Shown here: in pieces, positions 1 through 1,197 of the stretch
Layout of the letters: the number at the start of each line of letters is the position of its first letter
How positions within the stretch are numbered: position 1 is the first letter of the stretch
Origin: a phage
Length of the DNA: 1,197 nt
Sequence record: OR846208.1
Direction: 5' to 3' (one strand)
The notes under the pieces: generated by a model
The model's database searches: none
Told to the model about the DNA's origin: nothing
The model's input: the letters and a program-made list of their open reading frames with translations, nothing else
Translations under genes and position numbers: made by a program

Positions 1-637
1 AGGTAACCCTGCAATTTGTAATCTGTGCTGGTTTTAGCGTGGCAACTTCCGTCCATCTTCCTCCAGTGCTCAGACATAAAAGCGCGACAAGTAAGTCATC
101 ACCAGCCAAAACATTTAACAGTTTTTCGATTTCTGCTTTTTCCAGGAACGTCATTTCAGGGTTGGCCTCCGCCAGTGGCGGCAGTCCGTGAATTGGGTGT
201 TGCCCGGAAAATTCATCCAATTGAATTAATTTTGTGAACATGCCGGATAATCGGTACATGTCACGGTTTATCGTTGCGGCACTGATACCATCACGTAGTC
301 GCATGGAACGATAATCCATCAAAGCCCTTTTGCTCATCCTGCTCACTGGTATATCACCTATGCCGCTGATGGTTTTGAGTAGATGATTAAACTCTTTTGT
401 TCCATGCTCGTGGTTTTGCCCGTGATATTTCCACCAGATGTCCAGCAACTCACTCAAAGTCCGGCGGTCTGCTCGCTGGCCTCCCCATTCTTTCTGACTG
501 GCATTGGCGATTGTGTATCGCTCAAATGCTAGTGCTTCAGCTTTTCTTTCGAATTTCCTGCGGATGCGTTTTCCGTCGCGACCGCGAGGTCTAATGTCCA
601 CTTCATAGCGACCATCATCGAGCTTCTTAATTGCCAT
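1..637 (-). CDS. int: Phage tyrosine integrase, P2 Int-like; N-terminal ~212 codons only, 3' end lies beyond the left edge of the window
   Basis: Reverse-complement translation from ATG (complement of 635-637) runs open to position 1 with no stop: MAIKKLDDGRYEVDIRPRGRDGKRIRRKFERKAEALAFERYTIANASQKEWGGQRADRRTLSELLDIWWKYHGQNHEHGTKEFNHLLKTISGIGDIPVSRMSKRALMDYRSMRLRDGISAATINRDMYRLSGMFTKLIQLDEFSGQHPIHGLPPLAEANPEMTFLEKAEIEKLLNVLAGDDLLVALLCLSTGGRWTEVATLKPAQITNCRVT. The N-terminus closely resembles phage P2 integrase as I recall it (MAIKKLDDGRYEVDIRP.GR.GKRIRRKF). The LSTGGRW segment matches the region holding the first catalytic Arg of tyrosine recombinases. Shine-Dalgarno GGAGGG (complement of 645-650) sits 7 nt upstream of the ATG. 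The gene is missing from the ORF track probably because it has no stop inside the window. Confidence 0.9.
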   Translation of the reverse strand, partial: MAIKKLDDGRYEVDIRPRGRDGKRIRRKFERKAEALAFERYTIANASQKEWGGQRADRRTLSELLDIWWKYHGQNHEHGTKEFNHLLKTISGIGDIPVSRMSKRALMDYRSMRLRDGISAATINRDMYRLSGMFTKLIQLDEFSGQHPIHGLPPLAEANPEMTFLEKAEIEKLLNVLAGDDLLVALLCLSTGGRWTEVATLKPAQITNCRVT

Positions 638-706: not shown

Positions 707-1000
707 TTAGCCAATCCTTTTCGCGGAGTGGTTGGACTCTGTTGACTCTGGCCCAATGTGCGCGAGAGCCGGTGCGATTTGTCCTGCGTCCGGCGCGGTT
801 TTATCTGTCATAAGCCATAGAGCATATTTTTGGAATGTGGGATGCATAGTGATTTTTAGCAAAGCTGTGCCACCGGGTTCAAAGTTTCCTCCTTCATATT
901 TTTTAAGTGTGCTTAGCGGTAACTCTATGATTTCACAGAATTTTGATTGGCTTAGCCCTTCAGCCTCACGCAAGGCCTTAATCTTTTCGCTTAATTTCAT
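707..1000 (-). CDS. C: Phage immunity repressor, P2 C-type small helix-turn-helix protein (97 aa)
   Basis: Complete minus-strand ORF in the track: MKLSEKIKALREAEGLSQSKFCEIIELPLSTLKKYEGGNFEPGGTALLKITMHPTFQKYALWLMTDKTAPDAGQIAPALAHIGPESTESNHSAKRIG. It has an N-terminal HTH-like segment (LSQSKFCEIIELPLSTLKKYE). The C-terminal motif FQKY.LW.MT...AP..GQIAPALAH resembles phage P2 C repressor (99 aa) as I recall it. Size, orientation and position immediately upstream of int, co-directional with it, match the P2 C-int arrangement. The Shine-Dalgarno is weak (only AGG about 12 nt upstream). Confidence 0.85.
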   Translation of the reverse strand: MKLSEKIKALREAEGLSQSKFCEIIELPLSTLKKYEGGNFEPGGTALLKITMHPTFQKYALWLMTDKTAPDAGQIAPALAHIGPESTESNHSAKRIG

Positions 1001-1030
1001 TTGACATAGTGCCTATATAGGGACTAAATT
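1001..1030 (+). promoter_or_regulatory. Candidate early promoter (Pe-like), rightward: -35 TTGACA (1001-1006), 18-nt spacer, -10 TAAATT (1025-1030)
   Basis: A perfect consensus -35 hexamer lies directly next to the C start codon. A TAnnnT-type -10 follows at 18-nt spacing. Predicted transcription start is around 1037-1038, giving a ~100-nt leader before the rightward ATG. The arrangement matches the P2 early promoter lying next to the start of C. Confidence 0.5.
1012..1021. promoter_or_regulatory. Candidate repressor operator copy 1: 10-bp palindrome CCTATATAGG inside the -35/-10 spacer
   Basis: Exact 10-bp palindrome, repeated identically at 1046-1055. It lies between the candidate -35 and -10, so a bound protein would occlude RNA polymerase. 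Confidence 0.5.
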
Positions 1031-1040
1031 CCCTCAAAAC

Positions 1041-1060
1041 TGGAACCTATATAGGTTCCA
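1041..1060. promoter_or_regulatory. Candidate repressor operator copy 2: perfect 20-bp palindrome TGGAACCTATATAGGTTCCA containing CCTATATAGG
   Basis: Perfect 20-bp palindrome. The core CCTATATAGG (1046-1055) is identical to 1012-1021, centre to centre 34 bp. It sits just downstream of the predicted Pe start site, so the two copies flank the -10. Flanking arms CTCAAAAC (1033-1040) and GATTTGAG (1063-1070) extend the symmetry imperfectly. Confidence 0.5.
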
Positions 1061-1130
1061 TTGATTTGAGAATAAACCAGCGTCTAAACGGTTTTGAGTG
1101 GTTTAGAAAGGGCTGGATCCTATGAGGGTA

Positions 1131-1140
1131 CCATATATGG
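1131..1140. promoter_or_regulatory. Third related 10-bp palindrome CCATATATGG overlapping the start codon of the rightward gene
   Basis: Exact palindrome that differs from CCTATATAGG only by a symmetric A/T swap at positions 3 and 8. It covers ATG 1137-1139 and lies just 3' of the Shine-Dalgarno. Confidence 0.3.
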
Positions 1141-1197
1141 ACGCTGAAAATTATGTGATTCAGTATCCGCTTGATGCGGTTCATGTGGATAAATTTG
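1137..1197 (+). CDS. cox: 5' end of the rightward early gene, putative Cox-like excisionase/switch regulator; partial, continues past the right edge
   Basis: ATG at 1137 is preceded by Shine-Dalgarno GAGGG (1124-1128) with an 8-nt spacer. The reading frame is open to the window end: MDAENYVIQYPLDAVHVDKF. The position, divergent from the C repressor and downstream of the operator/promoter, is that of cox in P2-like phages. Only ~20 codons are visible, so the family assignment rests mostly on synteny. Confidence 0.45.
   Translation, partial: MDAENYVIQYPLDAVHVDKF

Follow-up and report, generated by a model that had tools for sequence, protein, structure and literature searches.

Two palindromic elements as the likely cores of a C-repressor operator at the Pe promoter of an L-413C-type P2-like prophage

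The C repressors of P2-family phages are cited as rare prokaryotic readers of non-palindromic direct repeats despite their symmetric dimer, and how such a dimer reads direct repeats is an open question (PMC2995052). The crystal structure of P2 C is a symmetric dimer that resembles palindrome binders such as P22 c2, and the authors of the structure proposed that only one of its two helices recognizes the repeat, the other contacting DNA nonspecifically (PMC2995052). The DNA analyzed here, a stretch of 1197 bases from phage sequence record OR846208.1 (the window), encodes a C repressor of this family and contains, beside the C start codon, two copies of a 10-bp element, CCTATATAGG. A reading made from the letters of the window alone (the sequence-only reading) had taken these elements for an operator built from palindromes rather than from P2-style direct repeats. 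The questions are whether they are the C operator of the promoter Pe and, if so, how the dimer reads them.

In the reading that we favor, with a probability of about 0.7, the CCTATATAGG pair forms the cores of two sites, O1 and O2, that make up the C operator of Pe, with one symmetric C dimer on each site and the two dimers occluding Pe. The first part of this reading, that O1 and O2 are the C operator of Pe, agrees with the sequence-only reading and is very probable in view of the geometry, the conservation, and the natural mutants described below. On the second part, that each site is read symmetrically by a dimer, we lean only slightly toward acceptance. The choice between palindromes and direct repeats posed by the sequence-only reading is a false opposition, because a repeated palindrome is a direct and an inverted repeat at the same time.

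The Pe Promoter and Sites O1 and O2

A consensus scan of the window found a single sigma-70-like promoter, predicted to be Pe, with TTGACA at 1001–1006, an 18-nt spacer, and TAAATT at 1025–1030. The element CCTATATAGG occurs exactly at 1012–1021 and 1046–1055, 34 bp apart from start to start, and because the −10 hexamer of this sole promoter lies at 1025–1030, the two copies flank it. The repeated unit is itself a perfect 10-bp palindrome, and the second copy is contained in TGGAACCTATATAGGTTCCA (1041–1060), a perfect 20-bp palindrome; these observations of the sequence-only reading are confirmed. The O2 palindrome extends imperfectly into 26-nt arms (1028–1053 and 1048–1073) that are 77% complementary. 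O1 is also a near-palindrome, TAGTgCCTATATAGGgACTA (1007–1026), symmetric at 9 of 10 positions in the window; in the common allele, which has G at 1008, the number is 8. The features of this region are as follows.

1001–1006, plus strand: Pe −35 hexamer TTGACA, from the promoter scan; it adjoins the C start codon, the CAT-TTGACA junction is also present in WΦ and P37, and the annotated Pe of WΦ (AJ245959) occupies the homologous position.
1007–1026, no strand: O1, a near-palindromic site of 20 bp with the core CCTATATAGG at 1012–1021; it fills the −35/−10 spacer.
1025–1030, plus strand: Pe −10 hexamer TAAATT, from the promoter scan; it stands just before CCC, like the TATATT of WΦ.
1041–1060, no strand: O2, the perfect palindrome formed by TGGAACCTAT and ATAGGTTCCA, with the core CCTATATAGG at 1046–1055; it covers about +5 to +24 of Pe.

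Transcription from Pe is predicted to start near 1036–1038, a position taken from the end of the Pe promoter feature of WΦ (AJ245959), which places the 10-bp core of O2 at about +10 to +19. Read toward the dyad, the half-sites are TGGTGCCTAT (O1 left), TAGTCCCTAT (O1 right), and TGGAACCTAT (both halves of O2), giving the consensus TrGwnCCTAT; the half-site can also be summarized as TGGwnCCTAT.

In 5000 dinucleotide-preserving shuffles of the 136-bp C-cox spacer, 10-bp palindromes were frequent (682 shuffles), but an exact 10-bp direct repeat arose in only 35 and a perfect 20-bp palindrome in none. The complete 32-kb genome of phage P24B2, which has the same immunity type, contains the 10-mer, with up to one mismatch allowed, at these two sites only and thus offers no candidates for distal operators like those of phage 186. 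There are five matches to TGGNNCCTAT in this genome, four in the switch and one in gene D (about the chance expectation); the half-site-like sequence at 1114–1123 is one of the five.

The sequence-only reading had also noted the TATATA at the center of each element and suggested that repressor and polymerase compete for it. As a −10 hexamer this motif is not credible: the copy in O1 begins 7 nt past the −35, and the copy in O2 has no usable −35, the best rightward candidate being TAAATT (2 of 6 positions) and the leftward arrangement TTTATT-17-TATATA lacking the final T. Competition between repressor and polymerase is retained in our proposal by another route, through occupation of the −35/−10 spacer and of about +5 to +24, as in WΦ.

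Comparison with Known Operators

The WΦ operator consists of 10-bp half-sites (TATTGGTGAC) that are 34 bp apart from center to center and span the −10 (PMC1904268), and it has been proven by electrophoretic mobility shift assays, reporter assays, and mutagenesis (PMC1904268, PMC1904263). In the WΦ sequence, CAT-TTGACA is followed by O1, 12 nt after the start of the −35, then by TATATT, and then by O2, 34 bp past O1. The window has the same geometry, with 10-bp units 34 bp apart that span the −10 and a −35 that abuts the C start codon; relative to the start of the −35, O1 and O2 lie at +11 and +45 in the window and at +12 and +46 in WΦ. The 34-bp spacing, presented by the sequence-only reading as an oddity because it is not a whole number of helical turns, is therefore the proven center-to-center distance of WΦ. 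It has been treated as about three turns, and WΦ C represses in vivo even at 2.5 or 2 turns (PMC1904263). The two switches also share a homologous C of 97 residues, site positions that agree within 1–2 bp, a dyad or hairpin that brackets O2, and a convergent cox. They differ in that the WΦ half-sites are not self-complementary, whereas the repeated unit of the window is palindromic, with a symmetry that reaches over about 20 bp. Apart from AACCTAT, which stands at the left edge of both O1 sites, the two operators have unrelated sequences; the phages are heteroimmune, and the −35/−10 spacer is 17 nt in WΦ but 18 nt in the window.

The P2 operator has 8-bp half-sites that are 22 bp apart from center to center and span the −10 (PMC1904268, PMC1904263, P2 annotation), and that of P2 Hy dis has 8-bp half-sites 26 bp apart around the −35 (PMC1904268, PMC1904263). 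P2 and the window have repressors of the same protein family, a leftward C, a rightward cox, and two repeats beside the Pe hexamers that flank the −10. In P2, however, O1 and O2 are GTTTAGAT, non-palindromic half-sites of 8 bp that are two turns apart, and the C proteins are 43% identical. The non-palindromic half-site repeats typical of the P2 family are not found in the window; the sequence-only reading was right that its elements, unlike the half-sites of P2 (GTTTAGAT), WΦ (TATTGGTGAC), and P2 Hy dis, are internally palindromic. In a side observation on P2 Hy dis, its primer A3-44 (CCTTTCAGATTCACGG) falls within the C gene of phage vB_EcoM-720R8, the spacer of which has CTCCGAAA/CTCCGATT around the −35. 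On the strength of the primer match and these repeats, vB_EcoM-720R8 carries the P2 Hy dis immunity type, as do two further records.

By the look of its sequence, the operator is closer to the adjacent dyad operators of the P22 c2, 434, or C.Esp1396I type. The P22 c2, 434, and lambda repressors and C.Esp1396I bind dyad sites of about 14–20 bp with an AT-rich center, one dimer to each, and bind neighboring sites cooperatively; the sites of the window look alike, and P2 C superimposes on the N-terminal domain of P22 c2. The family link to these proteins is limited to the generic HTH_3 fold, however, and the switch in the window has convergent promoters and no RecA-cleavable domain; in C.Esp1396I the spacing is 15 bp, as compared with 34 bp in the window. 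Phage 186 is related to P2, and its CI recognizes inverted repeats (PMC1904268), but CI has 192 or 196 residues, about twice the size of C, shows no sequence similarity to C, and acts as a wheel of dimers with distal sites.

The Locus, the C Protein, and the Immunity Type

Over its full length, the window is 99.0–99.8% identical to a set of P2-like phages that comprises Yersinia phage L-413C, P24B2, R18C, FSLSP004, vB_YpM_50, HQ103, and "P2" from Escherichia coli T22. By this identity, it comes from a P2-like prophage of the L-413C type and carries its lysis-lysogeny switch (int / C / Pe-Pc / cox), with int and C leftward and cox rightward in the P2-type gene order. The two leftward genes are as follows.

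1–637, minus strand: 3′ part of int; an integrase is annotated at identical coordinates in phages that are 99.3–99.7% identical.
707–1000, minus strand: gene for the C immunity repressor of 97 residues, an open reading frame with a match to P2 C and an HTH_3 domain.

The C protein matches P2 C (PDB 2XCJ/2L49) over residues 3–97 with E = 1.9e-21, and Pfam HTH_3 scores above its cut-off. Its identity is 100% to gpC of L-413C, R18C, P24B2, FSLSP004, vB_YpM_50, and "P2" strain T22, 43% to P2 C, and 56% to WΦ C, which also has 97 residues. In an alignment of 13 C proteins, Arg11, Glu14, Tyr35, Glu36, Lys58, Tyr59, Trp62, Gly73, Gln74, Pro77, Leu79, and Gly83 are invariant. Four of the five base-reading candidates of P2 C, Tyr31, Ser35, Tyr36, and Arg41 (PMC2995052), are replaced in the window C by Leu, Lys, Lys, and Asn.

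Immunity classes were assigned by a C identity of at least 95% within the class together with the same operator sequence. The window belongs to the L-413C-type group, with which it shares an identical C protein and the same C-cox spacer, departing from the group consensus in the spacer at 1008 only. It falls outside the WΦ immunity class (class III), from which it differs in C (56% identical) and in the operator (CCTATATAGG versus TATTGGTGAC), and it does not have a 186-type CI switch, there being no cII-like open reading frame between C and cox and a repressor of only 97 residues. With so low an identity of C to the repressors of P2 (43%) and WΦ (56%), the immunity type is, on this comparison, separate from theirs, and the suggestion of the sequence-only reading that the specificity may differ from that of P2 is borne out to this extent. 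The type is present in 420 of 5426 complete E. coli genomes (about 8%). In operator-region searches the region was chromosomal in every case and present in one copy; the sole match in a plasmid search was one Salmonella record. The immunity type is already in GenBank and the layout is already known from WΦ; the dyad symmetry is the new part.

Conservation and Natural Mutants

Thirty-three of 35 IMG/VR copies are identical across 1007–1060. Among the 420 E. coli prophages, the 30-mer that includes O2 (1041–1070) is intact in 419, and that of O1 is intact in 407, with 7 more that differ by 1008A. The polymorphisms read in sampled prophages are at 1008, 1029/1030, 1040, 1060, and 1082, with none in the 10-bp cores; the E. 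coli tally includes about 15 further operator-region variants whose base changes were not read. Positions 1008 and 1060 belong to the outer parts of the 20-bp sites. At 1008, the window has A, found in 7 of the 420 E. coli prophages, and G is present in the other 413, in all 35 IMG/VR copies, and as the consensus base in 314 exact 66-mers. The A makes O1 more symmetric (9 of 10 positions), and the G makes the left flank of O1 match that of O2 (TGGnnCCTATATAGG).

Approximately 100 E. coli prophages have one mismatch in the operator region, which is 1030 T>C in 80 and 1040A (as in AMSCJX02) in 3. The 1030 T>C change, in 80 of 420, alters the last base of the predicted Pe −10 from TAAATT to TAAATC; strain 41EC2 has 1029C and 1030C together. 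The last base is normally the most critical position of a −10 hexamer. Prophages with 1030C may have a weakened Pe and possibly be domesticated, or the assignment of the Pe −10 may call for confirmation.

Two lytic isolates of this immunity type carry changes in the operator together with a wild-type C and an intact int. L-413C has three differences from P24B2 in an otherwise identical block of 1833 bp: 1012 C>A (position −4.5 of O1), 1029 T>C (in the −10), and 1058 C>A (position +7.5 of O2), corresponding to 2512, 2529, and 2558 in the compared L-413C stretch. By our own arithmetic, the chance that three differences fall within the same 54 bp of this block is about (54/1833)^3 = 3e-5. R18C, which has been described as "virulent" (PMC6823313), has 1020 G>T (position +3.5 of O1) and 1046 C>T (position −4.5 of O2). 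In each of the two phages, both sites are changed within or beside them, on either side of the dyads and at the positions with the highest conservation in the clade, and the central TATA is spared. Mutations in a single half-site of P2 keep repression, and double ones relieve it (PMC1904268). Operator mutations thus probably explain the lytic phenotype of L-413C and R18C, as judged from these sequence comparisons. The paper on R18C makes no mention of operator changes (PMC6823313). HQ103 is a third lytic isolate; in it, 7 bp of C (835–841) are deleted and the frame is shifted, with an annotated coding sequence of 186 nt. Judged from its sequence, this deletion is an alternative route to the lytic phenotype within the same immunity type.

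Plague diagnostics make use of L-413C, and R18C serves in models of infection with Citrobacter rodentium. The operator changes offer a simple and testable explanation of why these phages are obligately lytic, and they predict the bases that would have to be reverted for lysogeny. A full-text search for CCTATATAGG returned no phage paper, and in the searchable literature the symmetry, the symmetric clade, and the operator mutations of L-413C and R18C are undescribed; Karlsson 2006, Liu 1999, and Garcia 2008 may have noted the repeat or the changes in L-413C.

Dyad Symmetry in Related Switches

The C-cox spacers of 19 further phage immunity types and 61 genome loci were compared with that of the window. 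Four genome relatives that share its EPGG-type motif after the recognition helix have the same architecture with other sequences, a C that is 53–78% identical, and sites 32–33 bp apart.

Trabulsiella: C 53% identical; O1 GGTTCCTTATCAGGATC; O2 GGTTCCTTATAAGGAACC; spacing 32 bp.
Serratia: C 61% identical; O1 TCCATATCTGGA; O2 GGTATCCACATATGGATACC; spacing 33 bp.
Brenneria: C 66% identical; O1 TTCCTATTTAGGAA; O2 GTTGTTCTCATATAGGAACAAC; spacing 33 bp.
Symbiopectobacterium: C 78% identical; O1 CCTAATTAG; O2 CCTATATAAG; spacing 32 bp.

The sites of these relatives are symmetric at 6–10 of 10 positions (2.5 expected by chance), with CC at −4.5/−3.5 nearly invariant, and the O2-type palindromes are consistently longer than those of O1. 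In Serratia, the arms are the same in O1 and O2 and the 4-bp center differs. No such symmetry is seen in the half-sites determined by experiment for P2, WΦ, and P2 Hy dis. Among the other types, PhiR44_2 has a partial dyad, ATGCC-N6-GGCAT, within a 17-bp direct repeat, and the O2 copy of 569R5 lies within AAAGATAACC-TTTT-GGTTATCTTT.

The orientation of the sites can be compared in P37 (1516–1548) and the spacer of a Sodalis prophage, the C recognition regions of which differ at 1 of 26 residues (Asp or Glu in HQ[D/E]PGI). Their O1 sequences, CTGACTTAATGAC in P37 and CTGACTTAGTGAC in the Sodalis prophage, differ at 1 of 13 bp. Their O2 copies, by contrast, have opposite orientations, P37 having an inverted one (GTCATTAA) and the Sodalis prophage a direct one (TTAATGAC). 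With a nearly identical recognition region and O1 and a flipped O2, the orientation of the site seems to be free in this family. Both the dyads in the relatives and the P37/Sodalis pair fit the binding of one symmetric dimer per site.

Proposed Mechanism and Alternatives

Because each site is dyad-symmetric over about 20 bp, the two halves of a dimer could make the same contacts with it. In the proposed mechanism, one two-fold-symmetric C dimer would bind each dyad of about 20 bp with the same specific contacts to both halves, the recognition helices would read CC/GG at ±3.5/±4.5 and G/C at ±7.5 from the dyad, and the TATA center would supply flexibility or bendability. The two dimers, 34 bp apart, would probably cooperate through DNA bending and, by covering the −35/−10 spacer and about +5 to +24, would exclude polymerase from Pe. 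C proteins bend DNA strongly (PMC1904263). Imperfect symmetry would be expected of O1, because its outer positions 1025–1026 are shared with the −10 and its left CCT is the complement of AGG; this CCT may be constrained by the AGG of the C ribosome-binding site, and TCCT occupies the place of the left edge of O1 in most relatives. We infer the binding of C at O1 and O2, the single dimer per site, the contact positions, and the cooperativity from the sequence features of the window, its WΦ-identical geometry, the homology of C, the conservation in prophages, the dyads in the relatives, and the mutations in lytic isolates. In an observation separate from this mechanism, the O1 palindrome (1007–1026) can fold on the minus strand, that of the Pc transcript (C mRNA), pairing the AGG that is likely to be the C ribosome-binding site; damping of C translation by this hairpin is speculative.

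The principal alternative, which we consider unlikely, is that C reads the 10-bp repeat asymmetrically with one helix per dimer, as proposed for P2, and that the palindrome is due to a required stem-loop. This would be a 5′ hairpin of the Pe transcript and/or of the Pc (C-int) leader, with a role in mRNA stability, translation, or convergent transcription. Support for a stem-loop comes from the stems that bracket O2 in other phages, which are TCAAAAGGT-12 nt-ACCTTTTGA in WΦ, CCCGAAAAGGT-12 nt-ACCTTTTCGGG in P37, and AAAAGGT-12 nt-ACCTTTT in SW3. Their lengths are 9 bp in WΦ (with the 12-nt loop), 11 bp in P37, and 7 bp in SW3; 569R5 has a stem of 10 bp, and P2 has an 8-bp stem slightly downstream of the O2 position. 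The outer arms of the window are homologous to the WΦ stem.

1033–1070, no strand: imperfect outer arms, CTCAAAAC and TTGATTTGAG, that extend the O2 palindrome.

The O2 stem is kept in 9 relatives, and one sequence or more has a double change at 5 of 13 pairs. The fold of the Pc-strand RNA (998–1117) gives z = −4.9; it has a stem of 15 pairs at O2 and, at O1, a small hairpin that covers the ribosome-binding site of C. For the Pe leader the value is z = −2.1, and a stem-loop agrees with the greater length of the O2 palindromes. Against this alternative, the symmetric core recurs at O1, upstream of the Pe start, both in the window and in the four diverged relatives, and an RNA hairpin does not need an identical sequence at two places 34 bp apart. 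The Serratia sites, with different centers and kept arms, have the pattern of a protein dimer that contacts the arms, and three of the mutations of R18C and L-413C (1012, 1020, and 1046) are within the repeated cores. Covariation in the hairpin is weak, and the stem is mostly conserved sequence.

Judged by these comparisons, the outer arms that surround O2 probably form a conserved hairpin of their own, which does not exclude an operator at the same place. With Pe predicted to start near 1037 and Pc near 1117–1120 (by WΦ homology), the O2 region is in both convergent transcripts, and the hairpin would form in their overlap. It may explain why the O2 palindromes exceed those of O1 in length but leaves the repeat of the symmetric core at O1 unexplained. 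Of the extension to about 38 bp described by the sequence-only reading, the imperfect arms are present, but they are better explained as the homologue of the hairpin that flanks O2 in WΦ, P37, and others than as part of the operator. A terminator called by a scan at 1041–1060 was rejected: the T tract is poor (TTGATTTGAG), the position is in the leader just past the Pe start, and the equivalent hairpins of the relatives have no T run.

Binding of another factor to the elements, for instance the host protein IHF or Cox, which acts as lytic repressor and excisionase, is considerably less probable still. P2-like Pe-Pc spacers do also contain Cox sites, and such switches use DNA-bending proteins (PMC3448106, P2 annotation). 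However, the annotated repressor sites O1 and O2 of P2 flank the Pe −10, with Pc to the right, toward cox, and the same two positions are the proven C sites of WΦ (PMC1904268, PMC1904263). Sites of the Cox type consist of short direct repeats with a spacing of about one turn and are not 20-bp dyads (PMC7498355). The lytic phenotype of L-413C and R18C fits a loss of C binding, whereas a loss of Cox binding would favor lysogeny. Chance, as repetition of AT-rich promoter sequence or of TATATA as alternative −10 boxes, can practically be discounted: the AT-rich spacer often gives 10-bp palindromes when shuffled, but the 20-bp palindrome, the 10-bp repeat, the restriction of the 10-mer to two places in 32 kb, the WΦ-identical geometry, and the wrong spacing of TATATA from any −35 all stand against it.

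Several points weigh against the symmetric-dimer operator that we favor. Conservation of the cores is weak evidence by itself, since all of the region is conserved to more than 99% within the class. The changes in L-413C are linked to lysis by comparison with its closest relative, P24B2, and not with the parental L-413, and one of the three (1029) is in the −10, outside both sites. The symmetry of O1 is imperfect, at 8 of 10 positions in the common allele, and its left CCT is perhaps otherwise constrained. WΦ C, which is 56% identical, is documented with non-palindromic half-sites at the same positions. Finally, because the O2 palindrome is longer than that of O1 and the hairpin of the relatives is not made of operator sequence, the O2 palindrome may in part have a role in RNA or DNA structure.

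A broader and more tentative suggestion, which we hold at somewhat less than even odds, is that P2-family C repressors are ordinary two-fold dimers, one per site, and that the direct repeats known from P2 and WΦ amount to such sites occupied on one half only. If so, the fully symmetric form would be the one seen in the L-413C class and in its relatives from Brenneria, Serratia, Trabulsiella, and Symbiopectobacterium, the P37/Sodalis pair would show that orientation is irrelevant, operator mutations would account for the lytic L-413C and R18C, and the O2 20-mer would be a natural substrate for establishing the way in which DNA is read by a symmetric C dimer. Should each 20-bp dyad take up one dimer, and should both of its halves contribute to binding, the direct-repeat mode of P2 and WΦ would be a degenerate form of dyad recognition. 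A common natural immunity type with symmetric sites in the WΦ placement is a clean test system for this.

Pc, cox, and the Remainder of the Spacer

Three further features lie between O2 and the right end of the window.

1114–1123, plus strand: half-site-like sequence TGGATCCTAT, near the predicted Pc start; its significance is uncertain.
1124–1132, minus strand: candidate extended −10 of Pc, TGgTACCCT, placed by the Pc feature of WΦ (AJ245959 1875–1911, minus strand).
1137–1197, plus strand: start of cox (MDAENYVIQYP...), annotated at 1137 in vB_YpM_50, FSLSP004, P24B2, R18C, and RefSeq E. coli prophages.

The motif TGnTACCCT is conserved in WΦ, P37, and the window; the consensus promoter scan did not detect the candidate Pc at 1124–1132, from which transcription is predicted to start near 1117–1120. 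In L-413C and 569R9, cox is annotated from the ATG at 1122. Because cox translated from 1137 aligns with the N terminus of WΦ Cox and has a good ribosome-binding site, GAGGG (1124–1128), 8 nt upstream, 1137 appears to be the likelier start. The sequence CCATATATGG (1131–1140), which overlaps the cox start codon, was considered as a third operator and rejected; it is a CC-W6-GG palindrome that differs from CCTATATAGG at 6 of 10 positions and was missed by a search allowing up to two mismatches. The spacer of the Serratia relative has AACCGCCATATATGGCAGTT at its positions 87–106.

The half-site-like TGGATCCTAT matches the half-site consensus and is 73 bp (about seven turns) from the left half of O2. 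Through this sequence, C could down-regulate Pc when the repressor is abundant. Because the same sequence is present in the heteroimmune P37, it is not specific to the immunity type of the window and may be just a part of Pc. Between O2 and Pc, at 1077–1116, there is a nested inverted repeat in which CCAGC...GCTGG encloses TCTAAAC...GTTTAGA. A hairpin is predicted for it on both strands, and GTTTAGA corresponds to 7 of the 8 bases of the P2 half-site GTTTAGAT; the repeat may be a Cox-binding region or a remnant.

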